NCBI GenBank assembly: GCA_963804165.1
Contig: CAWDPO010000033.1
Span: 32,001 to 96,000, forward strand
Length of the DNA stretch: 64,000 nucleotides
DNA from: an uncultured delta proteobacterium
GTDB lineage: Bacteria; Desulfobacterota; Binatia; UBA9968
Direction of reading: 5' to 3'
Shown: piece after piece, positions 18,208 to 57,626 of the stretch
How the letters are laid out: every line of letters starts with the position of its first letter
How positions within the stretch are numbered: the stretch's first letter is position 1
Notes under the pieces: model-generated
Told to the model about the DNA's origin: nothing
Database searches by the model: none
The model's input: the letters and a program-made list of their open reading frames with translations, nothing else
Translations under genes and position numbers: made by a program

Positions 18208-19344
18208 ATGAACATGTTCGTCGGGCATTTACTTGTCAGTTTCGCAATTTGCTTGGCTTTCGGCGTTGCGGCGGATGGTGCTGAGTCACCGCCGGCGTGG
18301 CAAACGGAGTGGGAGCGGACGGTCAAAGCGGCGGAAGCGGAAGGACAGCTGACTGTTTATATGTCCGGCTATAGCTCGGTCATCGAAGCGGGGGTGTTTC
18401 AAAAGGCTTTTCCGAAGATCAAAGTCACCATCGTTCCGGGAACGGGCTCGCAGCTGGCGCCGCGAATCGTCGCCGAACGCCGCGGTGAAAAATTTCTCGC
18501 CGATGTCTACAACGGCGGCGGGACTTCGCTGTATCAGGTCCTCTATTTGGGCAAGATGCTCGATCCGATACGGCCGGCGCTCATGCTTCCCGAGGTCACG
18601 GATACCTCGAAGTGGTGGGAAGGCAAACATAAATACGTCGATCGAGAAGGTAGCTACATGTTTGTCTACGAGGGCAACGTGTCGTCGGGCGGCTCGCCGG
18701 CTTACAATACCCAGCTGATCAGTCCAAAAGATTATCGATCCTATTGGGATTTTCTCAATCCCAAACTCAAGGGCAAGATCGGTTCAATCGATATTCGCAA
18801 AGTCCGTGGGATCGGACCCTCGATGCAGTATCTGTACTATCACCCGGAAATCGGCGTAGAATTTCTCCGCCGATTTTATCAGGAGATGGACGTCAGCATG
18901 AGTGGCGACTTTCGACAGGCTATGGACTGGCTGGCGGCCGGCAAGGTCGCAGTCCTCCTACCGATGCAGAGTTCAGGGACGGCGAAGGCGAAGGCGCAGG
19001 GATTGCCAGTGGATGAATTCGCTACAAATCAGTTCAAAGAGGGCGTGAACATTTCGTCCGCCTTCGGCCAGGTGGCGCTCATGAACCGGGCGCCGCATCC
19101 CAATGCCGCCAAAGTCTTCGTCAATTGGCTGCTGTCGCGCGAGGGCCAGGCCACGTTGCAAAAAACTATGAGCACGCCCGGCGATCCCAAGAACTCACGC
19201 CGCGTGGACGTTCCTAAGGATCACATTCCAACCGCGGAACGGCGCCGTGATGGCATGAAGTACTTTGACATCGACGACCGCGAAACCAAGGATATCAATC
19301 CGGCAATCAAGTTAATCGACGAGATTTTTGCCGGGACGAAATAG
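18208..19344 (+). CDS. Extracellular solute-binding protein, Fe3+/polyamine ABC class (paralog 1)
   Basis: Signal peptide; WQTEWERTVKAA, AERRGEK, SYWDFLNPK, APHPNAAKVFVNWLLSREGQ. Confidence 0.85.
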   Translation: MNMFVGHLLVSFAICLAFGVAADGAESPPAWQTEWERTVKAAEAEGQLTVYMSGYSSVIEAGVFQKAFPKIKVTIVPGTGSQLAPRIVAERRGEKFLADVYNGGGTSLYQVLYLGKMLDPIRPALMLPEVTDTSKWWEGKHKYVDREGSYMFVYEGNVSSGGSPAYNTQLISPKDYRSYWDFLNPKLKGKIGSIDIRKVRGIGPSMQYLYYHPEIGVEFLRRFYQEMDVSMSGDFRQAMDWLAAGKVAVLLPMQSSGTAKAKAQGLPVDEFATNQFKEGVNISSAFGQVALMNRAPHPNAAKVFVNWLLSREGQATLQKTMSTPGDPKNSRRVDVPKDHIPTAERRRDGMKYFDIDDRETKDINPAIKLIDEIFAGTK

Positions 19345-19413
19345 CCGAGGATAGAGGATGGAGTATTAAGGATGGCATGAGTACCGGAGATAGCCATAGA
19401 AGAGGAGCGTAAA

Positions 19414-20583
19414 ATGTTGACCGCAGAAGAAAACGAAATGCTCACAAGGGTCGGCCCGGGAACGCCGGCGGGCGAATTGCTGCGCCGTTATTGGCATCCT
19501 GTCGCGATTGCCGCCGACTTGACGCCGGAAAATCCGACTAAGTTCGTCCGTATCTTGGACGAGAATTTAGTATTGTTCGTGACGCCCAAAGGCGAGCCTG
19601 GCCTGCTCCACGATCGCTGTTCGCACCGTGGCGCCTCGTTGTCGTATGGTCGTGTCGAAGAGCGGGGCCTCGCGTGCGCTTATCACGGCTGGCTTTATGA
19701 CCCGAAAGGCAACTGTTTGGAAACGCCGGCGGAGCCTGCCGACAGTAAGTTTTGCCTCACCGTCAAACATAAAGCTTATCCGGTGCAAAAATTGGCCGGT
19801 CTGTATTGGGCCTATTTCGGACCTCAGCCCGCCCCGGTCATTCCGAAATATGATGTTTGGGCGCGTACCGACGGCTGGCACTGGCTGCGCGCACTGCCGC
19901 AGCTCGACTGCAACTGGTTGCAAGCGATGGAAAACTCCGTGGACACGGCCCATCTGCACATCCTCCATCAGGAGCTGGTGACCGACGGTTTCAAGGTCGA
20001 GAGCACGACCCGCGGCACGATCGACAATCTGGTCAAGTATGAGATGGAGGAGTTTACCCACGGCATTCTCAAGCGGCGGGTTTTCCGCGACGGCAAGGTG
20101 GAGGAACATCCGCTGCTTTTCCCCACGGTCTTGCGTCAAGCTAACCGCACACAGATCCGCGTGCCGATCGATGATACCCATACTTGGATCGTCTACGTTC
20201 ACTTTGTGCCCGATTCGGCCGAGCCGCGAGCGAACAAAGACGAAGTGCCGGTTAATTACCGCAAGCCTTTCAAAAATCCACTCGGTGCGCGCCATCCTTT
20301 TACCAAGTTCCGCCTTGATGAAGTCGACGCTCAGGATTTCATGGCATGGGAAACACAGGGGCCGATTCTCGACCGCACGCGCGAAAGGCTGGCTGCGTCA
20401 GACCGCGGCGTGGTGATGTATCGCGAGATGCTGGCACGGGAGATTAAGAAAGTGCAGCAGGGAGTCGATCCAATGAACGTTTTTCGCGATCCCGATCACG
20501 CGATCATCGACACCCAAATGGAAAGCTCCCTGGAAGTCGGGAAGGCGGGATCGGTGCGCTACCACGTGCCGCCGGCACTATAG
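19414..20583 (+). CDS. Rieske oxygenase alpha subunit
   Basis: CSHRG...CAYHGW; MENSVDTAHLHILH; QDFMAWETQG. Confidence 0.9.
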   Translation: MLTAEENEMLTRVGPGTPAGELLRRYWHPVAIAADLTPENPTKFVRILDENLVLFVTPKGEPGLLHDRCSHRGASLSYGRVEERGLACAYHGWLYDPKGNCLETPAEPADSKFCLTVKHKAYPVQKLAGLYWAYFGPQPAPVIPKYDVWARTDGWHWLRALPQLDCNWLQAMENSVDTAHLHILHQELVTDGFKVESTTRGTIDNLVKYEMEEFTHGILKRRVFRDGKVEEHPLLFPTVLRQANRTQIRVPIDDTHTWIVYVHFVPDSAEPRANKDEVPVNYRKPFKNPLGARHPFTKFRLDEVDAQDFMAWETQGPILDRTRERLAASDRGVVMYREMLAREIKKVQQGVDPMNVFRDPDHAIIDTQMESSLEVGKAGSVRYHVPPAL

Positions 20584-20642: not shown

Positions 20643-21770
20643 GTGAAGCGATCGGGTCAATTCATTATCATTACATTGGTGCTCGGACTCATCGGAGTTG
20701 CCAATGCCGCCGAATCCCAACCCAATTGGCAACGCGAATGGGAGAAGGTCCTCGAAGGCGCGAAGCGGGAAGGCGAGGTGCGACTCTGGGGTGAACAAGA
20801 AATCACGCATCTCGACATCATTGCGGCATTTACCAAAGAATTTCCTTTCATCAAAGCCGTCAGCGTAAGCGGGCGGGTTGGGGATTTGATGCCGCGCATC
20901 GTCGCCGAGCGGCGTGCCGCGAAATTTCTGGCCGACATTTACAGCGGCGGTTTGGGCGGACGATCGTTTTTTGATTTCCACAAAGCCGGCGTGCTCGATC
21001 CACTCAAGCCGGTGTTGCTTCTTCCCGAAGTCGTCGACGGCTCGAAGTGGCTGAACGGCGAGCATTACTATGCCGACGGAGAAAAGCAGTTTGTCTTTAT
21101 GTATGAGGGCAGCGTCGCTGGCGTTGGACTGCACTACAACACGGGTCTCGTCGATCCCAAGGAATTCAAGTCCTACTGGGATCTGCTCAATCCAAAGTGG
21201 AAGGGCAAGCTTCTGCTCTTCGAACGACCCGGGGTGGGCTCGCCGAGTGTGATTCGCTACTTTTACAACACGCAGCTGGGGCCGGATTTCGTCAAGCGCT
21301 TATTCAGCGAGATGGAGGTTACGGTTTCGCAGGACCGACGCCAATCGAGCGACTGGTTGGCGTCAGGTAAATTTTCCATCTGCATCGACTGCGGCGACAC
21401 CGACCGGGCAAAGCAGCAAGGATTGCCCGTCGATGAATTTCCCCATGCGAACCTCAAAGAAGCGAGCTATGAAATCAGCACAAGCGGCAACAGCGGTTTG
21501 GCGCTCATCAACAATCCGCCGAATCCCAATGCGGCGCGGGCATTTATCAACTGGTTTCTTTCGCGCAACGGCCAGACGGTGTGGCAGAGCGTCATGAACA
21601 CCAAGGTGCAGGAGCCTTCCGATTCCATGCGCGTCGATATTCCCAAGGACAAAGTTGGCGCGCCGGCAAAGCGCGAAGAGGGCAAGAAATATCGCGTCAG
21701 CGGATTTCTCGATCCCGATCCGCCGACGAAATTGTTTAGAGAACTAGTGAGTAAAGAGAAGCGCAAATGA
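20643..21770 (+). CDS. Extracellular solute-binding protein (paralog 2)
   Basis: Signal peptide ending ANAAE, family scaffold motifs, CIDC motif. Confidence 0.85.
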   Translation: MKRSGQFIIITLVLGLIGVANAAESQPNWQREWEKVLEGAKREGEVRLWGEQEITHLDIIAAFTKEFPFIKAVSVSGRVGDLMPRIVAERRAAKFLADIYSGGLGGRSFFDFHKAGVLDPLKPVLLLPEVVDGSKWLNGEHYYADGEKQFVFMYEGSVAGVGLHYNTGLVDPKEFKSYWDLLNPKWKGKLLLFERPGVGSPSVIRYFYNTQLGPDFVKRLFSEMEVTVSQDRRQSSDWLASGKFSICIDCGDTDRAKQQGLPVDEFPHANLKEASYEISTSGNSGLALINNPPNPNAARAFINWFLSRNGQTVWQSVMNTKVQEPSDSMRVDIPKDKVGAPAKREEGKKYRVSGFLDPDPPTKLFRELVSKEKRK

Positions 21771-21939: not shown

Positions 21940-22894
21940 ATGGCAGCGACGACTAACTACGAACCCATCGAGATCAACGCATACTTCCGTTCACATACAC
22001 ACCTGCCGCTTTGGGAGATACTCGACAAGGCTGGTTTCTGGAAACAGGTCGCGATCAAGGTCAATTTTACGTACTGCGATAGTTCTTCCGAGGCAGAGGC
22101 GGGATTGTTTAGCGGGAAAATCGATTTGATTTCCGGTAACCATATTTCGCCTTACGCGCTCGTCGCGCGCGGCAAGCCGATCGTCTCGTTGGCTTCGCCG
22201 ACCAACGGTGTGACCGATCGCGTGGTGTCACGCGAGCCGATCAAGTCGCTGGCGGAAATCCGCGGCAAGCGCGTCGTCGACACGACGATTCTCGATAACG
22301 GTGGCGGCTATAATCACATCCGCGGCAACCATATGCTTTATATACTGGAAGCCGGATTAGAGCTTAGCGACGTCAAATGGATCGAGATCACCGACAAAAT
22401 GTCGAGCGAGTTTCGCGCCGCGCAATACGAAGCGATGAAAGCCGGCGAGGGTGATGTGACCTTGGTGACCGGAGATACAAAAAGATATGAGCAGGCTGGT
22501 TTTCACGTTCTACAATTACCGCGACTGCCGATGATCAACGGGCCGACGCTCACAACTACCGTTACGGCGCTCAATAAGTACGATCGATTTGGCGAGCGGC
22601 TGGTGCTCGCGCAAGTGCTCGGCATTCACTTCGCGCGCACGCGTAGGGAAGAGACTGAAAAAATTCTCGAAGGATTGAAGAAACGCGAGCCCGAAGCGCG
22701 CGGCGTGTCGTACAACAGCGTGGCCAAGCTGGCGATAAAACCGTACCCGGATCATTCAAGCGGTCGCCAACGCGTATCGGCTCTGCTGCATGAAGGCGCC
22801 GGAAGCGAATGAAATGAGTCCGCTGGCGATGTGGGATTTGCATTACTTGCGCCAACTGGATCATTCCGGGTTTATCGATCGATTGTATGAGTGA
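21940..22894 (+). CDS. Signal-less NMT1/SsuA-fold protein (frameshift near 22756)
   Basis: No signal peptide. Motifs RSHTHLP, SGNHISPY and HIRGNH. The shifted frame continues QAVANAYRLC...SGFIDRLYE* (stop 22892-22894), matching paralog 35378. Confidence 0.75.
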
Positions 22895-23051: not shown

Positions 23052-24192
23052 ATGGGGAAAAGGGAAACTGTTCACGGGAATTTCAGGCTTCCTTCTGGTT
23101 GCCTTTTGGGTTGCGACGGCCAACGCCGCGGAATCCAAACCCAATTGGCAAACCGAATGGGAGCGGACGGTTAAGGCGGCCGAGGAGGAAGGGCAGTTGA
23201 CGGTCTATGTCTCGGGCTACGGCGCGTTGATCGATTCCGGGATCTTCCAGAAGGCCTACCCGAAAATCAAAGTGACCAGTGTCACGGGCTCCGGCACTCA
23301 GCTCGCGCCGCGCATCGTCGCCGAGCGGCGCGGCGAAAAGTATCTTGCCGATGTTTACAGCGGTGGCGGCACTTCGCTCTATCAGAATCTTTACCTCGGC
23401 AAGATGCTCGATCCGATCAAGTCGGCGCTGATCTTGCCCGAAGTCGTCGATCCGTCGAAGTGGTGGGAGGGCAAACAAAAATACGTCGACCGCGAGGGGC
23501 GCTATATTTTTGTTTTCGAAGGCAACGTGGCGGCCGGTGCGAGTCCGGCGTACAACACCAATCTGATCAATCCCAAGGACTACAAGTCGCTATGGGACTT
23601 TTTGAATCCCAAGTTGAAAGGCAAGATCGTTTCCCCTGACATTCGCAAAGTGCGCGGTTCCGGTTTATCGGTGCAGTATCTTTACTATCACAAGGACCTT
23701 GGACCTGAGTTCATTCGGCGTTTTTACGGAGAAATGGACGTGACTTTGACCGCCGACGTGCGCCAGGCGGTGGATTGGCTCGCGGTGGGCAAGTTTGCGC
23801 TGTCGATGCCGACGCAGAGTTCTTACACCGCCAAAGCCAAGGCGCAGGGATTACCGGTGGACGAATTCGATCCGCATCATATGAAAGAGGGCGCCAGCCT
23901 CGCCGTGGCGTTCGGCCAACTCGCGCTCATGAACCGCGCGCCTCATCCCAACGCGGCCAAGGTGTTTGTCAATTGGTTGCTTTCGCGCGAAGGGCAAAGC
24001 GCCTTCCAACGCGTCATCAGCACACCGGGAGACGCGAAAAATTCGCGGCGTATCGACGTGCCGAAGGATCACATTCCGACGTCCGAACGGCGCGGCGAAG
24101 GCGTCAAGTATTTTGACGCTGACGACCCGGATACCAAGGATATTACGCCGGCGATGAAATTAATGGACGAAATCTTTGCCGGGAAGAAGTGA
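23052..24192 (+). CDS. Extracellular solute-binding protein (paralog 3; indel near the start)
   Basis: ATG 23052 after GGAGG is one base out of frame with the signal peptide KLFTGISGFLLVAFWVATANAAE. Very similar to paralog 1. Confidence 0.82.
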
Positions 24193-25346
24193 CGGCTATG
24201 AGTCGAGGATTTATGAATCTTCTTACGCGAGCCTTCAGCCTTCTCGTCGTTACCTTCTGGACTAGCGCGTCTTACGCCGCCGAAGCCAAACCCAATTGGC
24301 AAGCCGAATGGGAGCGGACGGTGCAGGCGGCGAAAAAGGAAGGCTCGCTGTCGCTCTATCTTTTCCAGGGCGAGGGCGAGCTTAGCGCTGTGGCGCAGCT
24401 GTTCCAGAAAAAGTATCCCGAGATCAACGTGGCGGTGACCCCGGGGCGGGGTAACACGTTTGCGCCCAAGATCATGGCAGAGCGGCGCGCAGGCAAGTAT
24501 CTCGTCGATGCTTATATCGCCGGGGCGACGACTGCCTATGAAGTTCTTTATCGCGCGAAAATCTTGGACAGTGTGCGCGCGACGCTGATCCTGCCCGAGG
24601 TCATCGATGAGTCCAAATGGTGGCTCGGGCAGCATCACTACATCGATCCCGAGAGTCGATATATCTTCGTCTATTTGGGCAACGTCGGCGAGTATGTGTC
24701 CTACCATACCAAGTCACTGGACGCGGGTGAGATTCGTTCCTATTGGGATTTTCTCCAGCCTAAGTGGAAAGGAAAAATTCTCTCACGTGATCCGAAGATT
24801 TCCGGCAGCCAGCGCATTGGTCTTCGAGGATTTTATCATACACCGGAGCTGGGCGCCGAGTTCATTCGCCGTCTTTACGGCGAGATGGATGTGACGCTGA
24901 CTCAAGAAATCCGTCAAGCAACCGATTGGCTAGCGCACGGGAAATTCGCCATCTGCTTTTTTTGCTCTGAGATTCTGAAAGTCAAGGCACAAGGGCTTCC
25001 CGTGGATGAATTTCGCACGGCGCAATGGAAAGAGAGCCGGGTGATTTCCGCGGGCAACATGGGTTCTATAGCTCTGCCGAGCCAGCCGCCTCACCCGAAC
25101 GCCGCGCGCGTATTCGTCAATTGGTTGCTCTCACGCGAAGGCCAAATGGCGCTCCAGCGCACGACCAATACGCCGTACAATTCCGAGGAATCGCTGCGCA
25201 CCGATGTCCCCAAGGACGTGGTGCGGAGCGAAGTACGCCGCATCGACGGCGTGAAGTATTTGCTGGTGGATAAGCCGGAATATATCGACATGGCGCCGAT
25301 CTATGACATCGTCGAAAAAGCATTGGTGCAGGCGAAAAAGAAGTAG
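24189..25346 (+). CDS. Extracellular solute-binding protein (paralog 4)
   Basis: Signal peptide, family scaffold motifs, CFFC motif. Confidence 0.85.
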   Translation: MTAMSRGFMNLLTRAFSLLVVTFWTSASYAAEAKPNWQAEWERTVQAAKKEGSLSLYLFQGEGELSAVAQLFQKKYPEINVAVTPGRGNTFAPKIMAERRAGKYLVDAYIAGATTAYEVLYRAKILDSVRATLILPEVIDESKWWLGQHHYIDPESRYIFVYLGNVGEYVSYHTKSLDAGEIRSYWDFLQPKWKGKILSRDPKISGSQRIGLRGFYHTPELGAEFIRRLYGEMDVTLTQEIRQATDWLAHGKFAICFFCSEILKVKAQGLPVDEFRTAQWKESRVISAGNMGSIALPSQPPHPNAARVFVNWLLSREGQMALQRTTNTPYNSEESLRTDVPKDVVRSEVRRIDGVKYLLVDKPEYIDMAPIYDIVEKALVQAKKK

Positions 25347-25455: not shown

Positions 25456-26583
25456 GTGGGTAGATCGACGGCGAATTTTTGGGACAACAAGACGGCCTAT
25501 GAATACTGGATCGAATCGACCGGCGCGCCGATTCATCGCGGTTATTACATCGAAGACTGCCGCACGTTGGAGCTTGGCTATTGGGCGGAGCGTGAGTGCG
25601 ACGCGGCGTTTATTCAGCTCGTCGGTCAGGAAGGTGTGACCGGCGCTTACGTCACGGAGATTCCACCGGGAAAGACCTTGCCGTCGTTTCGCGTCGCGGT
25701 GGACGAGGTTGTTTACGTCTTAAAAGGCCGTGGCGTGGCGAGCATCTGGGCCGGCGAGCGCGCCAAGAAGATCTTTGAATGGCAAAGCCACGCGATGTTT
25801 TTGATTCCGGGCAACTACCATTGCCAGTTGAGCAACATGCAAGGCGACCAATCGGTGAAGCTGTTGCATTGCAGCTACTTGCCGCTGGCGATGTCGGTGC
25901 TGCCCGATCCGGACTATTTCTTCAACAATCCGCTGGTCGATTACAATTTGCTTTACGGGCAAGGATCGCGCGAGGTTTACTCCGAAGCTAAAGTCGTGAC
26001 GCTGAACGAGCCCGGCACCGCGCGTGACGGGCGAAACATCTGGTTCGGCAATTTCTTTGCCGATATGAGGGCGTGGGACCGGCTCGATCATTTCGAGCGG
26101 CGCGGCGCCGGCGGCCACGTCGTGTGGGTGGGATTTCCCAGCTCGCCGATCTCTGCCCATATGTCGGTCTTTCCCGCGCGCACCTACAAGAAAGCCCATC
26201 GCCATGGCCCCGGCTATCTGATCGTTATCCCCGCCGGTGAGGGCTACTCGATCATGTGGCCGGAGGGCGGCGAGAAAATTATCATCCCGTGGCACGAAGC
26301 GAGTTTGTTCGTGCCGCCCAATCGTTGGTTTCATCAGCACTTCAACATCGGCGGCGCGCCGGCGCGTTATCTGGCGATTCATCCGCCGCGGGGGCTCAAC
26401 GGCATTAGCGAGAAAGTCGAAGACCGCGCGCGCGATCAGATCGAGTATACCGACGAGGACCCGATGATTCGCGAGAAATTCGAGTCCGAGCTGTCGCGCA
26501 AAGGATTGGAATCGGTGATGCCGGATGAGGCGTACCGAAATCGTGACTACGAGTGGAGCTACACGCAGAAAAAAGCGAGCTAA
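25456..26583 (+). CDS. Bicupin protein
   Basis: C-terminal KAHRHGPG...WFHQHFN. The N-terminal cupin site is degenerate (SFRVAVDE). Confidence 0.78.
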   Translation: MGRSTANFWDNKTAYEYWIESTGAPIHRGYYIEDCRTLELGYWAERECDAAFIQLVGQEGVTGAYVTEIPPGKTLPSFRVAVDEVVYVLKGRGVASIWAGERAKKIFEWQSHAMFLIPGNYHCQLSNMQGDQSVKLLHCSYLPLAMSVLPDPDYFFNNPLVDYNLLYGQGSREVYSEAKVVTLNEPGTARDGRNIWFGNFFADMRAWDRLDHFERRGAGGHVVWVGFPSSPISAHMSVFPARTYKKAHRHGPGYLIVIPAGEGYSIMWPEGGEKIIIPWHEASLFVPPNRWFHQHFNIGGAPARYLAIHPPRGLNGISEKVEDRARDQIEYTDEDPMIREKFESELSRKGLESVMPDEAYRNRDYEWSYTQKKAS

Positions 26584-26595: not shown

Positions 26596-27753
26596 ATGAT
26601 TTGCCTAGACTGGAAAACGCGAATGACAGTTACGATAGCTTGGGTTGCTGGTTTTGTGGCGATCGCCGCAATCGGCACTTGTCCGCGCGCCACACATGCC
26701 GCCGACGCTAAACCGGCGTGGCAAGGCGAATGGGAAAAAGTTTTAGCCGCTGCGAAGAAGGAAGGCCAAGTCGCCGTTTATATTAGCGGCTACGAGGAAG
26801 TGCTGCCGGATTTTCAAAAGGAGTATCCGGAAATCAAGGTCAACGCTGTAACCGGCCGCGGCTCCCAGGTCGGCCAGCGTTTGCTCGCCGAGCGGCGCGC
26901 GGAGAAATTCATCGCCGACGTGGTCAGCGCGGGCGGCGTGACGACGTTTCAACAGTTACATCCCGCCAAGGTATTCGACCCGATCAAGCCGGCATTGATT
27001 CTTCCCGAAATCACCGACCCCGCCAAGTGGTTTGAGAGTAGGCATCACTATGCCGACCCGGAGAAGCAATACATTTTCAGTTACGTCGGTACCGCGACTT
27101 ATGGCTCGGTGAGCTACAACACTAAGTTGGTCGACGTGAAAGACTTCAAATCTTATTGGGACCTGCTCAATCCCAAGTGGAAAGGGAAAATAATTTCTCG
27201 GGATGTTCGAGTGCCGGGCCCCGGTTCGGGTAACGCGCGCTTGTTCTACTACCTGTCGGATGTCGGGCCATCGTTTATTCGCAAGCTCTACGGCGAAATG
27301 GACACAACTTTGTTTCGCGACTACCGCCAGGGAAGTGACTGGCTTGCGGTTGGCAAGGCGGCGATCTGCTTTTTTTGCGAAGTCGATGTGTCCAAGCAGC
27401 AGGGCCTGCCAGTGGACACCTTTGGCCCAGGAGTGTTTAAGGAAGGCGCCGGCCTAGTGCAGCAATTCGGTACCCTCGGGCTAGTAAACCGCGCGCCCCA
27501 TCCCAACGCTGCGAAAGTTTTTATCAACTGGTTGTTGTCGCGCAAAGGCCAGATCGCCCTGCAAAAAAATATGCTCAAAACCGAGAATCCCACCGATTCG
27601 CTGCGTATCGACGTTCCTAAAGACGAGATACCGACTTTGCAACGCCGCTTCGAGGGTGTGAAATACCTCGACACCAGTAGGCCAGAGTGGCAGGAGATGA
27701 AACCGATTTTAGATGTCATGAACGAAGCGCTCAAGGCGGCGGGGAAGAATTAA
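26596..27753 (+). CDS. Extracellular solute-binding protein (paralog 5)
   Basis: Signal peptide, family scaffold motifs, CFFC motif. Confidence 0.85.
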   Translation: MICLDWKTRMTVTIAWVAGFVAIAAIGTCPRATHAADAKPAWQGEWEKVLAAAKKEGQVAVYISGYEEVLPDFQKEYPEIKVNAVTGRGSQVGQRLLAERRAEKFIADVVSAGGVTTFQQLHPAKVFDPIKPALILPEITDPAKWFESRHHYADPEKQYIFSYVGTATYGSVSYNTKLVDVKDFKSYWDLLNPKWKGKIISRDVRVPGPGSGNARLFYYLSDVGPSFIRKLYGEMDTTLFRDYRQGSDWLAVGKAAICFFCEVDVSKQQGLPVDTFGPGVFKEGAGLVQQFGTLGLVNRAPHPNAAKVFINWLLSRKGQIALQKNMLKTENPTDSLRIDVPKDEIPTLQRRFEGVKYLDTSRPEWQEMKPILDVMNEALKAAGKN

Positions 27754-29017: not shown

Positions 29018-29106
29018 AATCGTGTTCGTGACTCGTGCTCGTGAGCGGGTGCGCATGAGTGCGACCAAGCGAAAAGCGCAGCGCTCGCGCGAAACGGAGA
29101 GATAAG

Positions 29107-32832: not shown

Positions 32833-32878
32833 CAGTGGTCAGTTATCAGTTACCGGCTGACAACACGGGAGCGAACTA

Positions 32879-46931: not shown

Positions 46932-47225
46932 ATGACGAAGCGCAAGGGATTTAGCGGCGAGTTCAAACGAGAAGCGGTGCGGTTATTAGAGACCTCGCAG
47001 AAGCCCCCGTCAGATCTCGCCCGCGAACTGGGAGTGCGGCGCAATCAGCTCTACAAGTGGAAAGAGCAGATGAGTAAGCGTGGCGAAGGAGCTTTCCCTG
47101 GATCAGGACGAGGATCGGGCGGCAACGATGAGGTGGCTCGACTGCGCAAGGAGCTGGAGAGAGTCAAAGAGGAGCGCGACATCTTAAAAAAGGCAGCCGC
47201 GTACTTTGCCAAGGAGCTCAAGTGA
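46932..47225 (+). CDS. IS3 transposase OrfA (HTH)
   Basis: FSGEFKREAVRL...ARELGV...LYKW...ERDILKKAAAYFAKE. Confidence 0.9.
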   Translation: MTKRKGFSGEFKREAVRLLETSQKPPSDLARELGVRRNQLYKWKEQMSKRGEGAFPGSGRGSGGNDEVARLRKELERVKEERDILKKAAAYFAKELK

Positions 47226-48088: not shown

Positions 48089-48171
48089 CTGTCCGTTAAA
48101 CCGGGGGCACCTCAGGATGTCCCTCCACGTGATGCTCTCTCTTCGATCCGTCATTCCCGCGCACGCGGGAA

Positions 48172-49205
48172 GGTGGATTCACATTTCAAGTGCAACAGGT
48201 TGTGGCAGAAAACCTCTGCCGGGGTTTTGTAGTTGAGACACTTTCTCGGAGTGTGATTATAACAACGAACCAAACGAGCAAACGGTTATCGGATAATGTG
48301 GCCAAGTCAGTCTTCCTCGGCAGTCCTCGGCGCATTCGTCCGATGGCGTTTTCAATACCGCCTTTTTGCCACGGCGCATGAGGATCACAGAAAAACGTGC
48401 GCATCGAGAGTTTATGGAGTCGGTAGTGATAGGCGAACTCAGTGCCGTTATCGAAGGTGATCGTCCGACGTAAGAGCTTGGGTAAAGATCTGAACAGATC
48501 CGTGAGCTTTTTAGCCACCGGCTCGGCAGCCTTGCTGGGCTGTCGACTGACCAGGAGCAAACGAGAGCGTCTTTCATGAGTGACCAAAACAGCCTGACCG
48601 TACTTGGCAAACAACATCAAGTCCGCTTCCCAATGCCCCGGTTGTCGGCGCTTATGGATGTAGGCCGGACGCTGATTGATCGGTACTCGGTCTGGATATG
48701 ATCCACTGGGCTACCGCCTTTGTGCCCACGCCAACCCCGCTTGCTTTTTCCCCGGGGAAGGTAGTGGCGCCAACTATAGTCCTGAGTACGGCGAATCTGG
48801 GAGTCGATAAAGCGATAGATCGACTCATAGCTGATCACTGTAGCTCTTTGTTCCTTTTTCAGTCGTCCGGCGACTTGAGCCGGCGACCAACCCTGTCCCA
48901 GGCCTTGGAGCACCTCTTGCTGAAGATCAGGCTTACGCAGCAACCGGCTTCCCCGCCAACGCCGGCTTTTAGTCGCTGCTCGGCGTAGGCCGGCTGATAA
49001 CCGACTTGAGTGCCGCTGTTGCGTTTAAGCTCACGCGCTATAGTCGATGGCGCGCGATCCATAGCTGTCGCGATTTGGCGGATTGTTTTCCCGGCTTGGC
49101 GATGCCGGGCAATCGTGCAACGTTGTTCCAATGAAAGCTGTTCATAGTGCTGTCCCATCGCAACACCTTATACAAAAAGTGTTGCACTTCGTTTGTGAAT
49201 TTAGG
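48172..49205 (-). mobile_element. IS30-family insertion sequence inserted in a REP
   Basis: Imperfect ~26-bp TIRs sharing ATTCACA....AAGTGCAACA; GAA (up to GGGAA) is duplicated on both flanks. Confidence 0.85.
48186..49158 (-). pseudogene. IS30 transposase, split by several frameshifts
   Basis: MGQHYEQLSLEQR...STIARELKRN, WSPAQVAGRL...SYESIYR, GHWEAD, TITFDNGTEF and CDPHAPWQKGGIEN, spread across three frames. Confidence 0.8.
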
Positions 49206-49426: not shown

Positions 49427-50674
49427 ATGCTGAGCCGTGAAGAAAACGAGCTGCTGACTAAAGTCGGGCGTGGCACGCCGATGGGCGAATTGCTGCGCCG
49501 CTACTGGTATCCGATCGCTGCGTGCTCTGAACTCATTGAGAAACCAACTAAGGGTGTGCGGGTGCTCGGCGAAGACTTGGTGCTCTATCGCGACAAGCAG
49601 GGGCGGCCGGGTCTCATCGGCTCGCAGTGCGCGCACCGGCGCATGGCGTTGGTTCTGGGGATTCCGGAAAAGGACGGCTTGCGCTGTCCCTACCATGGCT
49701 GGCTGTACGATCGAAACGGTAAATGCCTCGAACAGCCTTATGAACAGGCCGAGGATCCCGAAAGTACGTTTAAGGATCGCATCCGCATGCCGGCGTATCC
49801 GGTCGAGGAGCTAGGCGGTCTGATTTTCGCCTACCTCGGCCCGCAGCCCGCGCCGCTATTGCCGCGCTGGGAATTGTTCGTGCGCGACGGTGTACTGCGT
49901 GATATCGGCGCGGCGGTGATCCCGTGTAATTGGCTGCAGATCATGGAGAACTCCCTCGACCCGGTGCATGTCGAATGGCTGCATCAGCATTTTTTCAACT
50001 ACGTGCAAGAACGGCTCGGGCGCACGGATTTCAAAGGCGAGCCGGTGCGCCACAAAAAGATCAACTTCAGAGAGTTCGAGCATGGCATCATCAAGACTCG
50101 GATGCTGGAAGGCGAGAGCGAAGACAACGAAGACTGGCAGGTGGGGCACCCGGTGCTGTTTCCGAATATTCTCCTGAGCGGGAGCACGAGCCGACCGACT
50201 TTTCAGATCCGCGTGCCGCTCGATGACACGCACACGCTGCACCTCTGGTACACTTGCTATCCGCGCGGCGATGCCAAGGGGCCGCAGGAAGTGATTCCGT
50301 TTTACAACGTGCCGGTGCCGGGCGTCGACGCCGCCGGCGAGCCACAGTGGTCGCTGCTCGACAACAACAGCGGCGAAGACATGATCGCGTGGATTACCCA
50401 GGGCGGAGTCGCGGATCGGACGCAAGAATCGCTGGGTCTTTCCGACAAAGGCATCATTCTCTACCGTCGCCAGCTCAAGGAGCAGCTGGAAAAAGTTCAG
50501 GCCGGGCAAGACCCGATCAACGTTCTTCGCGATCCGGCAAACAATGTGAATATCAAGGTCCGTCTTGAAGACAGCAAGCTCAACAGCGGCAGTTTTCGCT
50601 CCGGCCCGCGCCGCCAGGGCGGTGCAACGAAATATAGTCCGATTCTTAATGAAGAGGAGCGGACGAGAAAATGA
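49427..50674 (+). CDS. Rieske oxygenase alpha subunit
   Basis: CAHRR...CPYHGW; MENSLDPVHVEWLH; EDMIAWITQG. Confidence 0.9.
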   Translation: MLSREENELLTKVGRGTPMGELLRRYWYPIAACSELIEKPTKGVRVLGEDLVLYRDKQGRPGLIGSQCAHRRMALVLGIPEKDGLRCPYHGWLYDRNGKCLEQPYEQAEDPESTFKDRIRMPAYPVEELGGLIFAYLGPQPAPLLPRWELFVRDGVLRDIGAAVIPCNWLQIMENSLDPVHVEWLHQHFFNYVQERLGRTDFKGEPVRHKKINFREFEHGIIKTRMLEGESEDNEDWQVGHPVLFPNILLSGSTSRPTFQIRVPLDDTHTLHLWYTCYPRGDAKGPQEVIPFYNVPVPGVDAAGEPQWSLLDNNSGEDMIAWITQGGVADRTQESLGLSDKGIILYRRQLKEQLEKVQAGQDPINVLRDPANNVNIKVRLEDSKLNSGSFRSGPRRQGGATKYSPILNEEERTRK

Positions 50675-50853: not shown

Positions 50854-52030
50854 ATGGCTTTGGTTAAAATCGGCCTCGTCGGTCTCGGCACAGCGGGAAG
50901 ATCGCTGCCGCAAGCGATCGCCAAGACGACGGGATTCTCCTTCGTCGCGGGAGCCGACCTTCGAGAAGAGGCGCGCGCGCAGTACCGCGCCGAGTTTGGC
51001 ATTCAGACCTTCGACAGCGTCGAGTCGATGTGCGAGCTCAAAGAGCTGGACGCCGTCTACGTCGCCACGCCGAATCCCTATCACGCCGAACATGCCCTCA
51101 CGGCCCTGGAACACGGCAAGCATGTGATGGCCGAGAAGCCGATGGCATTGACTCTGGAAGATTGCGACCGGATGATTGCAGCGGCGGAAAGAAATCACGT
51201 CAAGCTCATGGTCGCGCATACGCGCAGTTTCAATCCGCCGATCCGCAAGATGCGCGAGATTATCAGCAGTGGCAAGCTTGGGCGGGTAACCCAAGTTCAT
51301 ACGCTACGATATTCGCCCTGGCTGTTGCGGCCGCGCGAGCCGGTGGAAATTAATACTGAGTTCGGCGGCGGCGTTTGCTACCGTCAGGCGCCGCACCAGG
51401 TCGATATCGCTCGTCTATTGGGCGGCGGCATGGTGCGCAGCGTGCGCGCCCACGCGGGCCGCTGGTCGGCAGAAAATTCTACGGAAGGAAACTATTCCGC
51501 GCTCTTGGATTTCGACGGCGGTGTGACCGCAACTTTGATCTATGACGGCTATGGCTATTTTGACGATCGCGAGTTGATTGAGGGCGACGTATTTGGCGGG
51601 GACGATCAACTTGGGCCCGGCCAGAGATTGAGAAAAGCACGCGCCGAAGGAAGGCTTAACAAAGATACCAGCCGCTCGGGCGTCAGCTTTTGACATCGAG
51701 CGCGGCGACGGCGATGGCGAGCAGGCAGGCCGCGCCAGCCGTTTTTCGGCATTACGCTTAGTCAGTTGCGAGCGCGGCGCGCTGCGGCAGTCTGCGGACG
51801 GGGTTTTCATTTACGACGAGCACGGCAGAACTGAAGTGCCATGTCCGGACTGGAGTGGTCCGCTCAAGGTGGAACTGGAAGATTTTTACCAAGCCGTGAC
51901 CACTGGCGGGAGCGTCCCCCATGACGGGAAATGGGGCAAGGCGACTCTGGAGGTTTGCCTGGCGATACTTCAGTCGAATGAGCACAAGCGCGAACAACTG
52001 GTCACCCATCAGGTGCCGAGCCCGTACTGA
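50854..52030 (+). CDS. Gfo/Idh/MocA oxidoreductase (frameshift in the T-run near 51690)
   Basis: GLVGLG, DAVYVATPNPYH, EKPMA, RQAPHQVD. The shifted frame gives VSCERG...HDGKWGKATLEVCLA...HQVPSPY, matching paralog 16964. Confidence 0.85.
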
Positions 52031-52121: not shown

Positions 52122-53859
52122 ATGGCTAAAACCGAGACACTGAGCCCTGTATCCGTCAGCCGTTCTTGGCTCCCCCCGATGGACGGCGGCACGGCGCTCA
52201 TGGCCGTGCTGATCGGCTTTATGGGCTTCTACGTGCTCTACCCATTGACCCTGATTGTCGTCAACAGTTTCAACACCGCGACGATCGCCGAACCGCCGGT
52301 CTACGGCCTCAAGGCCTGGCGCGAAGCATTCAGCGAGTATGGGATCTGGCGCTCGCTGTGGAACAGCGTGAAGATCGGCATCGTGCTGCAAGTCGATCGC
52401 GCTACCGCTGGGAATTTTCATTTCTTGGTTGCTCGCGCGCACCAATATCTTCTGCGCCAACGCGTTGGAGTTCGGCTTTTGGATTTCTTTCTTTCTGCCG
52501 GGGTTGGCGACCACGTTTGGTTGGATGCTGATGCTCGATCCGAGCACCGGATTGATAAACTCGTGGTTGCGTCAGATACCGTTTTTAAGCGGGCTTAATT
52601 TCGACATTTACACCTTCGCGGGGATTATCTGGGTTCATTTGGTTAGCAACGGTATTTCCACCAAAGTGATGTTGATGACGCCGGCGTTCCGCCGCATGGA
52701 CGCATCGATGGAAGAAGCGAGCCGGATGTCCGGCGCCAGCGCGCTCACGACGATGTTGCGAATCACCGTTCCAGCGATGACTCCGGTGATCGTTGTTGTT
52801 TTCTTACTCAGCGTGATCCGCATCTTCAGCAGCTTCGAGATCGAGCTGTTGCTCGGCGTGCCGTGGAGTTTTTATGTGTACTCGACAAAAATTGTCGATC
52901 TCGCGAGGCAGGAACCGCCGTTGGTGAATCAAGCGGCGGCGCTGGGGAGCATCATTCTGCTCTTTCTCGCCGCTTTTATTCCCCTCCAGCGCAGATTAAT
53001 CACGCGCCGGCAATTCACGACCGTCACGGGGCAATTCAAACCGAAGATCATCGATCTTGGCGTGTGGCGTTACCCGGCGACGGCCTTTGTTGCTTTGGTT
53101 ATTTTCGTCCTGGACGTTGTGCCGCTCTTGAGTGTCTTGGGCGGCAGCTTCATGACTCGGTTCGGCTTTTTCAATCTGCCGAAAACATGGACGCTGGAGT
53201 ACTGGAGGATGGCGTTTAGCGATCCGCGTATTCTCCATGGCTTGCATAATACGCTGATCGTCGCGGTCAGCGCCGGACTAGTCGGCGCTCTGGTTTTCTC
53301 TTTGATTGGTTACGTTCTGGTGCGGACCAAACTTCCCGGCCGCTCATTGCTCGATACTATTTGCTGGCTGCCGTCGGCGATCCCCGGCGTGTTGGCCGGG
53401 CTTGGCTTATTGTGGATGTTTCTTGGCACGCCGTTTTTCCGGCCGTTTTACGGCACAATTTTTCTCCTGGTCATCGCTCAGGTTCTCGGCGGCATCACGC
53501 TGTCGACCCAAATACTCAAAGCTAATTTCGTCCAATTCGGAAAAGAGCTGGAGGAATCATCGCGCATGTCGGGCGCGGGCTTTTGGCGCACCTATTTTCG
53601 CATCGTGTTTCCGCTGATGGCGCAAACGATGGTGTTGGTGGGCGTGATTAAATTCATGTTCGCCGCGCAGCACAATTCGGCGATCATTCTTCTCGCGACT
53701 TCGGAAACCAGAACTTTGTCGCTGCTCGCCCTTGATCAGGTGGCGGCGGGATACCGCGAAGTCGCGAGCATTACCATCATCATGGTGACGTTACTCACGC
53801 TCGGGTTGGCCATCGTCGCGCGATCGTTCGGTCTTAAAGTCGGCATTCGAGCGGATTGA
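52122..53859 (+). CDS. ABC permease, FbpB/ThiP-like double MetI domain (frameshift near 52396)
   Basis: Two EAA loops (MEEASRMSGA, LEESSRMSGA) and many TM helices. Confidence 0.87.
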
Positions 53860-53952: not shown

Positions 53953-55068
53953 GTGAGCTTTTTACGCATTGAAAATCTCTACAAAACCTTCGACCGAGTG
54001 GTGGCGGTTAATCGCATCAATCTCGAGATCAAAGAAGGCGAGTTCTTTACCCTGCTCGGCTCCAGCGGTTGCGGCAAAACGACGACGCTGCGCATGGTCG
54101 GCGGACTGGAAAAACCCGACGGCGGCGCGATTTATCTTGCCGACCGTTGTCTGGTTTCCGACGCGCAAAAACTGTTCGTCAAACCGGAAAAGCGCGACAT
54201 GGGCATGGTGTTTCAATCCTACGCGCTGTGGCCGCATATGACGGTCTATGAGAACGTCTCGTATCCGCTCAAACTTCGCGGCATGAAAGGCGCCGAAGCC
54301 AGCAACAAAGTCGCCAATGTTTTGGCGCTCGTCGGTCTTTCCGGACTGGAAGAGCGGCCGGCGCCGGCACTGAGTGGCGGGCAACAGCAGCGAGTCGCGC
54401 TCGCCCGGGCGCTGGTATTTTCGCCCAAGGTCTTGTTGCTCGACGAACCGTTGAGCAATCTCGACGCCCAATTGCGCGAAGAAATGCGTCGCGAGCTCAA
54501 GGCCCTGCAGCAGCGGATCAACGTCACAGTGATATTCGTCACCCACGACCAGATCGAAGCGCTGAGCCTATCCGATCGAATCGCGATTATGAAATTCGGC
54601 GTGCTCGAACAGGTCGGAACCCCGGAGGAGGTTTACTATACACCGGCGACGCCGTTCGTGCGTGACTTTTTGGGTAAGACGTTTCTTCTTTCTGGAAAGG
54701 TGGTTGGCGTTTCCGATCAGCACGTGCAAGTCGAAGTCCAAGGAGTCGGCGCATCTTCGCTCACGCTGCAACGGAATAATGTGATTTCATCCGCCAACGG
54801 ATTCCCCACCATCGGCCAGTCCGCGATGGTCGCCATCCGGCCTGAAAAAATGATTCTCTCGGATCGCGGCTGTGAGGGACAGGGCAACGTCGTCGAAGGA
54901 ACTTTGCAAGCGACGCAATTCCTCGGCGATCGTTACGAGTACACCGTGACTCTCGGCTCAGAAACCCGGGTGATCGTGTCGCCGGAAGCCAAGCTCCTCA
55001 AGCAGGGCGGCAAAGTTTTTCTCGAGCTCAAGCCCGAGGGCGTCACTCTCTGGCCGCGCGAACCGTAA
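53953..55068 (+). CDS. ABC ATPase, FbpC/PotA-like with TOBE domain
   Basis: GSSGCGKTT, FQSYALWPHMTV, LSGGQQQRVALARA, LLLDEP. Confidence 0.92.
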   Translation: MSFLRIENLYKTFDRVVAVNRINLEIKEGEFFTLLGSSGCGKTTTLRMVGGLEKPDGGAIYLADRCLVSDAQKLFVKPEKRDMGMVFQSYALWPHMTVYENVSYPLKLRGMKGAEASNKVANVLALVGLSGLEERPAPALSGGQQQRVALARALVFSPKVLLLDEPLSNLDAQLREEMRRELKALQQRINVTVIFVTHDQIEALSLSDRIAIMKFGVLEQVGTPEEVYYTPATPFVRDFLGKTFLLSGKVVGVSDQHVQVEVQGVGASSLTLQRNNVISSANGFPTIGQSAMVAIRPEKMILSDRGCEGQGNVVEGTLQATQFLGDRYEYTVTLGSETRVIVSPEAKLLKQGGKVFLELKPEGVTLWPREP

Positions 55069-55142: not shown

Positions 55143-56277
55143 ATGGCGATGTTGGTCATGCAACGCTTTCCCTGCGCGGTAGTTGGCGCATGGCTTTGTT
55201 TGTTTGCTAGCTCGTACCTATCCGCTGCCGAAACGAAAATCGATGCGGAGTGGTCGGGCACAGTTGCGGCTGCCAGGAAAGAGGGCAAAGTCAGCGTTTT
55301 TCTTTACCAGCGGGAGAACATCGAGGCGGCGGTTAAAGCCTTCGAGAAAAAATTTCCCGATATTCAGGTCATCACAGCGAGTACGTCCGCGGCGGAGACG
55401 GGACCGCGCCTGATGGCGGAACGGCGCGCCGGCAAGTTTCTCTGGGATGTTTGTTTGTGCGGACCGACGACTCCGTTCGTAGCGCTTTACCCGGCCAAAG
55501 CTTTGGATCCGATCAAGCCGGCGTTGCTGCTGCCGGAAGTGACCGACGCGACGAAATGGTGGGAAGGCAAGCATCAATATATGGATCCGGAAGGAAGCCA
55601 TATCTTCGTATTTCATCGGCAGCGTCGATATGCCCAATCTCTTCTATAGTAAAAATGGAGTCGACCCCAACGAATTCAAATCCTACTGGGACGTGATCAA
55701 AGCAAAATGGCGCGGCAAAATCGTCGCCGTGGACCCGCGCCAGCCCGGCCGGCCGCGGGTCGGCACACGCGTCCTTTACAATATTCCCGATCTCGGAGAA
55801 AAATTTTTGACCCGGCTGTTCTTGGAAATGGACATTGTCCTTAGCCGCGATGACCGCCAAGCGCTGGACTGGCTCGCGGTGGGAAAGTACGCGCTCTGTT
55901 TATTTTGCGGCAATATCGAAGCGGCGCGAGCGCAGGGTTTGCCCGTCGAGGAGTTTGAAACCTATCGCTGGAAAGAGACTCCGGCGATCTCCTCGGGCAG
56001 CAACGGTTCGATCGCGCTGATGAATCAGGCGCCGCATCCCAATGCCGCGCGGGTGTTTATTAATTGGCTATTATCGCGCGACGGCCAGGTCTCGTTTCAA
56101 AAGATCATGAATTCCGCCGACCTGTTGGTGGAATCGATGCGCGTCGATATCGCCAAAGATCCCATTCCCATGCCGCAGCGACGAGTGGGGGGAGTGAAGT
56201 ACATCATCATGGATACTGCGGAGCGAAGCAATCAAGAGCCGGTGAATAAGCTGTTGAAAGAGATCATCAAGAAATGA
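55143..56277 (+). CDS. Extracellular solute-binding protein (paralog 12; frameshift near 55612)
   Basis: N-terminal half 55143-55649 and C-terminal half 55630-56277; CLFC motif. Confidence 0.82.
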
Positions 56278-56501
56278 TCGACGCAGAGACCAAGTTCTTA
56301 GTGAGATGGGGACGTATCGTTCGCACCCAGATAGTCCTCTCCCCTCGAGCGGCTGTGCGCTGATGTCATTCTGAGCGTAAGCGAAGAATCTCGCTTTTCC
56401 TGCTGTCGACGAAGGCGAGATCCTTCGCCTATTGGCTCAGGATGACATCTATCTATGGAGTCTTGGGGTTGCGACAGAGACTTCCGTGGTGAGAAAAACA
56501 T

Positions 56502-57626
56502 ATGATCACGCGTATTCTGATTATTCCTCTTTTTGCTCTCTTGGGTTCGGTCTCCGCGGCGCCTGCCGCCCAGTTAAGTGTCGCTGCTGCCGCATGGCAA
56601 ACCGAGTGGGAGCGCACGGTCAAAGCGGCGGAGCAGGAGGGCGAAGTCTCCTATTACACGGTCGGTGAGTTTAACTTTCTGACCGAGTTCGAAAAGAAAT
56701 TCCCGCGCATCAAAATCAAAGTCGTGCAGGGTAGAGGCAACGAGCTGCTGGTGCGCATCATGACCGAGCGACGCGCCGGGAAATACCTCGCCGACGTGGC
56801 GCGCATCGGCAACACTTCGCCTTACGCGCTGTATCAGGCTAAAACGCTGCAGCCCATCGCCGGCGCATTCATTTTGCCGGAAGTCAAAGACGAGTCGAAA
56901 TGGTGGTCGGGGAAACATCAATACGTCGATGCCGAAGGCAGATACATCTTCGTTCCGGTCGGCAGCGTCTCGGTGAATATGGTCGCGCACAACAGCGAGC
57001 TGGTGGCGCCGGCGGAACTCAGCTCGTTTTGGGATCTCTTGCAGGAGCGATGGCGCGGCAAGATCGTCGTCATCGACCCGCGCGCCAGCGGCTACGGCAG
57101 GAGCGGTGCGCGCACGGCTTACTATCATCCGCAACTGGGCGAAGAGTTTTTGCGCCGGTTATTTAGTCAACAAGTCGTGATGATATCGCGGGATTACCGC
57201 CAGGCGATCGATTGGGTGGCGCAGCGGCGCTTTTCGATCCTGCTATTCGGCAACGGCGACGATGTCCTGCAGGCGAAAGCGCGGGGCTTGCCGGTCGACG
57301 TCTTCGATAACGCTTCCTGGAAAGAGGGAGGCGCGTTGGAACCGGGCGCGTTCACATTTGCATGGTTGGATCGATCACCGCACCCCAATGCGGCCAAGGT
57401 TTTCATCAACTGGCTGCTCTCACGCGATGGGCAAATGGCGGTTCAGCGCGATGGGCAGATTCACGACTCGCTGCGCGTGGATATTCCAAAAAACGAGCTG
57501 CGCCCGATGGCCCGACGCAAAGAAGGAGCGAAATATATGGTGACATGGAAGGCGGAGTGGATGGACGCCGAGCCCATGCAAAAAGTAGTGAGCCAGGCGC
57601 TGGCAAAGAGTGCCAAGAAGCCATAA
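56502..57626 (+). CDS. Extracellular solute-binding protein (paralog 13)
   Basis: Signal peptide and family scaffold motifs. Confidence 0.85.
   Translation: MITRILIIPLFALLGSVSAAPAAQLSVAAAAWQTEWERTVKAAEQEGEVSYYTVGEFNFLTEFEKKFPRIKIKVVQGRGNELLVRIMTERRAGKYLADVARIGNTSPYALYQAKTLQPIAGAFILPEVKDESKWWSGKHQYVDAEGRYIFVPVGSVSVNMVAHNSELVAPAELSSFWDLLQERWRGKIVVIDPRASGYGRSGARTAYYHPQLGEEFLRRLFSQQVVMISRDYRQAIDWVAQRRFSILLFGNGDDVLQAKARGLPVDVFDNASWKEGGALEPGAFTFAWLDRSPHPNAAKVFINWLLSRDGQMAVQRDGQIHDSLRVDIPKNELRPMARRKEGAKYMVTWKAEWMDAEPMQKVVSQALAKSAKKP

Follow-up and report, generated by a model that had tools for sequence, protein, structure and literature searches.

A conserved array of paralogous ABC receptor genes lies within a Binatia catabolic supercluster and may serve the import of aromatic carboxylates

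Transport systems in which many paralogous receptors are served by few membrane units are already known. According to PMC8556258, the Comamonas gene tphC, which encodes a receptor of a tripartite tricarboxylate transporter (TTT), sits in the terephthalate operon beside dioxygenase genes and apart from tpiA/tpiB, and PMC5812351 gives Bordetella pertussis 76 Bug genes vs two tctAB sets. ATP-binding cassette (ABC) transporters offer further precedents: DppA1-5 of Pseudomonas aeruginosa are paralogous substrate-binding proteins (SBPs) with distinct substrate profiles and one ABC permease, according to PMC12728205, and the phthalate-type ABC uptake systems PatDABC (Rhodococcus jostii RHA1) and OphFGH (Burkholderia) are described in PMC10973024 as lying beside phthalate catabolic genes. 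We analyzed a 64,000-nucleotide stretch of DNA (contig CAWDPO010000033.1, positions 32,001 to 96,000) from an uncultured Binatia (Binatota) bacterium, the whole of which we call the window. It carries, on the + strand at 18208-57626, an array of 13 SBP paralogues, one fused permease, and one ATPase interleaved with catabolic genes. We favor the reading that the array encodes an ABC importer that takes up (hetero)aromatic carboxylates through multiple receptors inside a modular catabolic supercluster, and hold its full mechanism to have a slightly better than even chance of being right. An initial annotation, made from the sequence alone, had singled out the array as the best candidate for an undescribed system. 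What it had observed was partly confirmed and its interpretation partly supported; the novelty was overstated, as the many-receptor logic is already known for TTT transporters.

All 13 SBP gene starts proposed in that annotation fall on + strand SBP-type reading frames: SBP1 (18208-19344), SBP2 (20643-21770), SBP3 (23052-24192), SBP4 (24189-25346), SBP5 (26596-27753), SBP6 (27875-29017), SBP7 (30586-31752), SBP8 (33859-35109, with the true start probably near 34018), SBP9 (36457-37590), SBP10 (41536-42645), SBP11 (45619-46794), SBP12 (55143-56277), and SBP13 (56502-57626). The 13 proteins are alignable over their length. Eleven genes score above the Pfam gathering cut-off for SBP_bac_1/6/8/11; SBP2 and SBP12 are sub-threshold, and both align along their length with the paralogues. 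Pairwise identity is 37-72% among the 11 genes with a single long frame, a comparison that omits SBP9 and SBP12 for their fragmented frames. The motifs WxxEW, AERRAxK, SYWDxLxPKWKGK, and APHPNAAKVFxNWLLSRxGQ, proposed as nearly invariant, were all found and are almost invariant. Of four proposed close pairs, SBP1/SBP3 (72%) and SBP5/SBP6 (68%) stand, while SBP2/SBP8 (51%) and SBP11/SBP13 (47%) do not. Read by eye, every intact SBP has an N-terminal hydrophobic segment ending in A-x-A, and an AlphaFold2 (AF2) model of SBP5 places an N-terminal helix at residues 6-27. Translations and the table of open reading frames (ORFs) put the array within a co-directional + strand gene block of ~10.4-58.9 kb. 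This block also holds three previously uncounted SBP-type genes of other families – two PF04392 ABC_sub_bind genes (31774-32832 and 32879-33862; pair or members also in L002, L007, L026, and L042 of the related loci described below) and an SsuA-like gene upstream (11708-12727). A matching permease for either the PF04392 pair (31774-33862) or the SsuA-like SBP is absent from the window.

A scan of species-representative genomes with a seven-row alignment returned 64 related loci (given here by L numbers), mostly in Binatia metagenome-assembled genomes (MAGs). Scored with hidden Markov models (HMMs) made from the window's own proteins, the loci contain 149 SBP ORF pieces together with 41 Rieske, 34 cupin, 19 UbiD, 18 Gfo, and 13 NMT1-like matches. 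Permease matches number 13 (7 at ≥400 bits, 6 at 103-184 bits) and ATPases 4.

Gene order around individual SBPs recurs across these loci. The order CUPIN-UBID-RIESKE-GFO-SBP-RIESKE-SBP is found in L001, L002, L007, and L042, and L003 has the same enzymes with the SBP absent between GFO and RIESKE. Six loci carry a GFO-SBP1/3-RIESKE module and six the SBP5-SBP6 pair, which L002 and L007 extend to SBP4-CUPIN-SBP5-SBP6. SBP8-type genes adjoin an NMT1-like gene in L008, L016, L021, L026, L044, and L047, and an SBP-RIESKE-CUPIN(-PERM-ATPASE) arrangement occurs in L003, L016, L019, L025, L026, and L029. L023 reproduces the window order CUPIN-CUPIN-SBP10-RIESKE-SBP11-RIESKE minus the insertion sequence (IS) elements, and L016 and L019 place 4-5 SBPs upstream of a single PERM-ATPASE pair. 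The proposal that the SBPs lie beside matched enzymes is thus borne out as micro-synteny with particular catabolic enzymes, kept across loci. The array is conserved among Binatia (Binatota) genomes. The closest Atlas clusters are mostly Candidatus Binatota, and close homologues of SBP5 (≤91% identity) either come from Candidatus Binatia or 'Deltaproteobacteria' MAGs or carry the name 'iron(III) transport system substrate-binding protein'. An exhaustive search sized the SBP subfamily at 834 representatives (50% identity level) at E ≤ 1e-30.

Eight loci with the same modules (L003, L016, L020, L022, L026, L042, L043, and L055), some with near-identical gene order, belong to MAGs whose label is Chloroflexota, Udaeobacter, Nitrospinota, Blastocatellia, Verrucomicrobiia, or Acidiferrales. 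These foreign-labelled loci are either mis-binned Binatia contigs or the product of horizontal spread.

The close pairs had been taken as a sign of ongoing duplication. This was not borne out: for 10 of the 11 testable SBPs, the best match in another genome (66-93%) is nearer than any window paralogue (45-72%). A FastTree phylogeny built on 143 sequences gives each of the same 10 of 11 an exclusive clade with members from 1-14 other loci; SBP13 has none, and its orthologue was found in 0 of the 64 loci. Even the closest pair, SBP1 and SBP3 (72%), have separate orthologues, in L025 (87%) and L013 (93% over the SBP3 body) respectively. Orthologues were likewise identified for SBP2 (L021 and L044, 67-70%), SBP4 (L007, 87%), SBP6 (its own clade, 7 loci), SBP7 (L016, 80%), SBP8 (L026, L016, and L008, 73-74%), SBP10 (L029 and L023), and SBP11 (L029, 83%; L023, 79%). 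Because orthologues are closer than paralogues, the duplications are older than the divergence of these genomes, and the SBP copies are old, separately maintained lineages.

The membrane side of the array is far smaller. A fused two-domain permease of FbpB/PhnU2 type (52122-53859, +; NCBIfam PhnU2, Pfam BPD_transp_1) and an ATPase with a TOBE domain (53953-55068, +; Pfam ABC_tran and TOBE_2, with PhnT2/PotA-like NCBIfam models below cut-offs) are, as first annotated, the sole ABC membrane and energy parts of the window. Only two other window ORFs have at least four transmembrane-like segments, an MFS protein and a DedA/VTT protein. SBPs far outnumber membrane parts, 13:1 in the window and 149 pieces vs 13 permease matches over the 64 loci. 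The pair lies within an array and on its strand in the window and in L003, L016, L019, L028, and L054. The claim of a single transporter stands for the window only; on OZ244621.1, a complete Binatia chromosome, at least two related permeases lie in the five stretches sampled. Related permeases in sampled Binatia stretches imply that the source genome may hold more permeases, and the true SBP:permease ratio is likely several to one, not strictly thirteen to one.

The enzymes of the array's first module indicate what might be imported. A bicupin metalloprotein gene (12883-14022, +; Pfam Cupin_2) opens the conserved CUPIN-UBID-RIESKE-GFO module, which L001, L002, L003, L007, and L042 share in synteny. 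It is followed by a UbiD-family (prenylated FMN) aromatic-acid decarboxylase (14057-15514, +; Pfam UbiD_N/UbiD/UbiD_C) that matches phenazine-1-carboxylate decarboxylase PhdA (7pda) at E 5.5e-112 over residues 7-481. The next gene, a LigXa-like Rieske oxygenase alpha subunit (15690-16967, +; Pfam Rieske), contains a full LigXa_C domain (positions 2-291 of 304). A Gfo/Idh/MocA dehydrogenase resembling cis-diol dehydrogenases (16916-18151, +), its protein read from 16976-18151, matches 4,5-dihydroxyphthalate dehydrogenase (7wzd) over its whole length (residues 1-383, E 4e-96). Beyond SBP1, a phthalate-dioxygenase-like Rieske oxygenase (19414-20583, +) matches putative phthalate 4,5-dioxygenase alpha subunits (7fjl/7fhr) at E 2e-52. 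Both parts of a phthalate-type catabolic module – a phthalate-family Rieske oxygenase and a Gfo-type cis-diol dehydrogenase – are therefore found. The cluster enzymes have no signal peptides, so their substrates must be imported. The suggestion that these are aromatic acids or N-heterocycles agrees with the enzyme relatives, which point to (hetero)aromatic carboxylates.

SBP5 was modelled with high confidence (pLDDT 94.6; 137-row alignment) as a two-lobed periplasmic-binding-protein fold, and a Foldseek comparison with the PDB gave at least 500 matches (E ≤ 0.001), those listed all being SBPs of this class. The nearest structures are MctA metal-citrate binders (7f6k at the top; E 1e-17, TM-score 0.59-0.73, 19-20% identity), followed by FutA/FbpA, the sugar phosphate binders AfuA and VcA0625, PhnS, P5PA (pyridoxal phosphate), IbpS, and PotD; a further neighbor, 6lkg, is an SBP that partners a two-component system. 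Relatives in this fold thus bind organic anions. Solved relatives are remote by sequence (profile match to MctA, E 6e-20). The most conserved motif, HPNAAK...LLS..GQ, is also present in MctA and so marks the wider fold, not this array.

From these elements we propose the following mechanism. In this Binatia (Binatota) bacterium a co-directional catabolic supercluster of ~46 kb (12.9-58.9 kb) has the region as its core. The 13 SBPs would be Sec-exported periplasmic proteins; they belong to a subfamily, expanded in Binatota, of the two-lobed ABC receptor fold known from Fe3+/thiamine/polyamine/phosphonate systems, each lineage keeping its place beside given enzymes (Rieske, Gfo, PhdA-type UbiD, bicupins, or NMT1-like proteins). 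In the periplasm each SBP would bind a single (hetero)aromatic carboxylate or a narrow range of them and dock on the fused permease (FbpB/PhnU2 type). Import would be powered by the ATPase (PotA/PhnT2 type), and the adjoining enzymes would degrade the substrate. Here we infer both the nature of the ligands and the sharing of the window permease by several SBPs.

The docking step was modelled with the intact L016 permease and an SBP of the same contig that is 80% identical to SBP7. The complex scored 0.64 (runs 0.64, 0.55, and 0.65), the best of three controls 0.00; 116 of 157 solved complexes attain the mark applied, as against 2 of 215 mismatched pairs. Runs had at least 83% of contacts in common, and partner pLDDT was at least 82. 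The ERRAxK, RQxxDWxAxGK, and QGLP motifs lie within the predicted interface. In support of the proposed docking of SBP on permease, the model passes its controls, though complexes of SBPs with type-I importers are already solved and the pass may therefore reflect likeness to them. The docking model says nothing on which paralogues dock.

The initial annotation had also predicted diversified pockets. We defined specificity positions as those conserved within, and differing between, nine orthologue groups; they cluster at SBP5 63-74, 90-94, 111-120, 167-171, 202-214, 240, 260-266, 288-293, and 359-366. As pocket proxies we took the mutated residues named in PDB titles of MctA (S26, D28, S79, S164, T199, and Y221), which map to SBP5 positions 64, 66, 113, 207, 243, and 263. 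Proximity favors the prediction: 4 of the 6 equivalents lie within ±1 of a strict specificity position (P = 0.04), the same 4/6 count at ±2 giving P = 0.12, and a looser threshold, picked post hoc, includes 5/6 (P = 0.007). Across paralogue groups, positions 64, 66, 207, 243, and 263 show 4-7 modal residues, and position 113 is an invariant Gly where MctA has Ser. The evidence that variable residues line the SBP pocket is suggestive only.

Several results weigh against the importer reading. By exact position, 1 of the 6 MctA equivalents is a strict specificity position (P = 0.54), and on this count the pocket evidence is weak. The conserved docking face that had been proposed was not shown: conservation is 0.588 for the 54 predicted interface residues vs 0.585 for the other 300 (P = 0.50), and columns conserved at ≥90% number 9/54 in the interface vs 60/354 with buried and surface positions pooled, so that the predicted interface does not rise above the rest of the SBP. 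On the transporter side, related permeases occur in two (L024 and L063) of five sampled stretches of OZ244621.1, which together hold nine SBP pieces, and L008, L028, and L046 carry fused permeases that are more distant. The window permease has a single frameshift near 52400 when aligned to its intact L016, L019, L028, and L054 orthologues, and three SBPs are frameshifted or otherwise broken as sequenced. Relatives of the fold that work independently of a transporter exist, such as IbpS (6fjl) and the two-component partner 6lkg. Among the ORFs scanned in 10.4-58.9 kb we detected no regulator gene, and none for a reductase or ferredoxin that might partner the six Rieske oxygenases. Nor could the bicupin be tied to ring cleavage. 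Its assignment as a gentisate-type ring-cleavage dioxygenase was dropped, with no PDB sequence match and, by fold, generic bicupins only (TM-score ~0.5); its Foldseek matches are MncA, oxalate decarboxylase, and vicilins.

A more far-reaching version of the proposal takes an 'iron-type' receptor subfamily specific to Binatota as a plug-in library whose ligands are carboxylates, aromatic or N-heteroaromatic, that may be carried as chelates of Mg or Fe as in MctA; each receptor would be tied genetically to the module degrading its ligand, and all would feed one permease. We advance it tentatively, as a reading that falls short of an even chance.

The strongest rival takes the SBPs as orphans, most of which bypass the permease at 52122 and serve other permeases, of its own or another family, encoded elsewhere in the genome, partner sensors in the periplasm, or stand alone. 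We consider it unlikely, though it deserves serious weight. SBPs with no permease within 10 kb are found at, for example, L009, L014, L017, L018, L027, L045, L049, L051, L057, and L059, and the six distant permease matches (103-184 bits) lie near arrays. The frameshift in the window permease and the existence of IbpS and 6lkg as structural relatives fit the same picture. Standing against it is the permease/ATPase pair that five other loci also hold inside the array and on the same strand, as is the docking model that passes its controls; as to sensing, the window revealed no gene for a sensor kinase or a chemoreceptor.

The database names of the subfamily raise another rival, that the SBPs are redundant binders of ferric iron or metal chelates supplying metal to a cluster that has many iron enzymes, namely Rieske oxygenases and cupins. 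Close homologues bear the iron(III) name given above, FutA and FbpA are structural neighbors, and the nearest structure, MctA, binds a metal-citrate complex. Curated models speak against it: the NCBIfam cut-offs were reached by 0 of 10 scanned SBPs, iron-binder models are among none of the listed matches, and the best match, phnS2, gives 22-50 bits vs a cut-off of 393. Identity to iron binders is 16-20%. Nor was a TonB-dependent receptor or siderophore gene found among the scanned window ORFs, and 10 lineages each kept beside a specific enzyme are unexpected for redundant iron carriers. We judge this rival very improbable, and the best reading of the iron(III) labels, judging from sequence, is mis-annotation.

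The broken frames bear on whether the array works at all. As sequenced, SBP3, SBP9, SBP12, and the permease are broken, and the other ten SBPs are intact. In SBP3 the gene body and the ATG at 23052 stand in different frames, the break coming right after the ATG, and the body frame is open from 22993. SBP12 has a single frameshift near 55630. In SBP9 a TAG replaces the first W of WxxEW and two frameshifts bring the count to three lesions within 1.1 kb, at 36555, ~36690, and ~36860, for which reason SBP9 is probably a true pseudogene. A UbiD gene (29059-30542) and a Gfo gene (50854-52027, near 51650) are also split, and the window contains at least 10 frame lesions. Since lesions also occur outside the cluster, in a molybdenum hydroxylase gene (6391-8077) and an IS30-like gene, assembly error fits as well as decay; we infer that errors of sequencing or assembly account for most of the broken frames, though the lesion pattern fits decay as well. 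Long-read error as their sole cause is unproven, as split genes also occur in short-read MAG loci (L020, L026, and L042). Two IS elements (46932-49158) separate SBP11 from the next Rieske gene, and L023 has the same gene order without either. One is an IS3-family element that looks intact (orfA 46932-47225, orfB 47222-48088, +; Pfam HTH_Tnp_1, rve), the other an IS30-like transposase in three frame pieces (48186-49158, -; Pfam HTH_38, HTH_32, weak rve). No sign of a horizontal-transfer island was seen in base composition, which is even across the window (GC 0.52-0.62). That the array is a decaying, largely non-functional remnant under relaxed selection and IS invasion, as the lesions and the two IS elements would allow, is the least probable of the readings given the lesions outside the cluster, the ten intact SBPs at 66-93% identity to orthologues, and the split family genes in related long-read and short-read MAG loci alike.

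The remaining genes of the block, all on the + strand unless stated, complete the supercluster. Two NMT1-like genes accompany the SBP2/8 clade: an NMT1/SsuA-like gene (21940-22812; Pfam NMT1) without an N-terminal hydrophobic signal, and a second (35378-36319; Pfam NMT1), also without a signal sequence. The proteins, for which no solved relative was found by sequence, could work in the cytoplasm as enzymes or as binding proteins with an SBP fold. A bicupin (25456-26583) lies between SBP4 and SBP5, sub-threshold for Pfam Cupin_2 and scoring 580 bits with the family HMM, and the second UbiD-family decarboxylase (29059-30542; Pfam), with one frameshift near 30135, lies between SBP6 and SBP7. After SBP9 come a Rieske oxygenase (37695-38861; Pfam) and tandem bicupins (39078-40181 and 40371-41474; Pfam Cupin_2, AF2 pLDDT 85.5). 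SBP10 is followed by another Rieske oxygenase (42771-43982; Pfam) and an NAD(P)-dependent dehydrogenase of the 6PGDH/3-hydroxyisobutyrate dehydrogenase type (44406-45281; Pfam NAD_binding_2, NAD_binding_11). Between the IS elements and the permease lie a Rieske oxygenase (49427-50674; Pfam) and the second Gfo/Idh/MocA dehydrogenase (50854-52027; Pfam), split over two frames. A Rieske oxygenase (57664-58902; Pfam) is the final gene of the co-directional block.

Three further observations concern genes around the array. Beyond the block, at 59128-61225 (-), are a transporter of the MFS_3 type and a short piece of a LigB-type extradiol dioxygenase; this fragment is 187 aa long, covers profile positions 32-192 of 269, and may be another truncated gene. 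At 6391-9594 (-) a xanthine dehydrogenase-family molybdenum hydroxylase is split into pieces matching MoCoBD_1/2, Fer2_2 with CO_deh_flav_C, and an FAD_binding_5 fragment. At 10075-11703 (+), an in-frame TGA (10360-10362), if read as selenocysteine, yields an FADUGSC motif, and the ORF continues into 10432-11703, a frame that matches the C-terminal part of Pfam UGSC (117-171) and the NCBIfam 'UGSC family (seleno)protein'. This is likely, judging by these matches, a selenoprotein gene fused to a domain of ~400 residues. A SECIS-like hairpin of 9 bp starts 13 nt past the TGA, and its folding is not above that of shuffles (z = -0.8).

Binatia are abundant in soil and uncultured, and to our knowledge little is known of their diet. 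If the importer reading is true, the iron annotation would be wrong for the whole SBP family, whose members bear only iron(III) or generic solute-binding names in databases. SBP/enzyme pairs would then give substrate predictions for lignin-, humic-, and plasticiser-derived acids, and the SBPs could be used as specific biosensor or uptake parts, as is described for TphC and terephthalate in PMC8556258. The plug-in library, if real, would add a new ligand class for this SBP fold and a gene-neighbor code from which the substrates used by an uncultured soil phylum could be read. A search of PMC open-access papers and bioRxiv found no description of the SBP subfamily, of its link to aromatic-acid modules, or of its expansion in Binatota; the Binatota literature found there concerns hydrocarbon-degrading enzymes and di-iron monooxygenases.

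Among known systems, the closest by description are the TTT transporters. As seen in TphC/TpiBA and Bug, they resemble the array in combining many paralogous receptors with few membrane units, in placing receptor genes inside catabolic operons beside Rieske dioxygenase genes, and in carrying aromatic or aliphatic carboxylates, comparable to the aromatic carboxylates that the array would import. They differ in receptor family, the array SBPs belonging to SBP_bac_1/6/8/11 and not TctC/Bug (the TctC/Bug Pfam family is listed for none of 35 proteins scanned), in energy source, the array using an ABC ATPase where TTT systems use a secondary TctAB carrier, and in layout, as the array's membrane unit sits within the array. 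By structure and sequence, the closest solved protein is MctA of a Thermus ABC transporter (7f6e/7f6k), which binds an organic polycarboxylate and shares the C-terminal HPNAAK...LLS..GQ with the array SBPs; identity is only 19-20%, and the residues mutated in the MctA entries are not conserved in the array. FbpA/FutA/HitA with FbpB share the fold class and the combination of one fused two-domain permease with one ATPase, and are set apart by 16-20% identity, by the lack of a match to any curated iron model, and by the 13 paralogues in a catabolic context. DppA1-5 differ in their peptide cargo, in having five receptors vs 13, and in not being interleaved with matched enzymes. PatDABC and OphFGH, alike in being ABC uptake systems for phthalate-type acids encoded beside catabolic genes, have one SBP per system, unlike the array. 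The advance offered by this locus would accordingly be a new family and ligand class and not a new concept, the principle of many receptors to one transporter being established by TTT systems.

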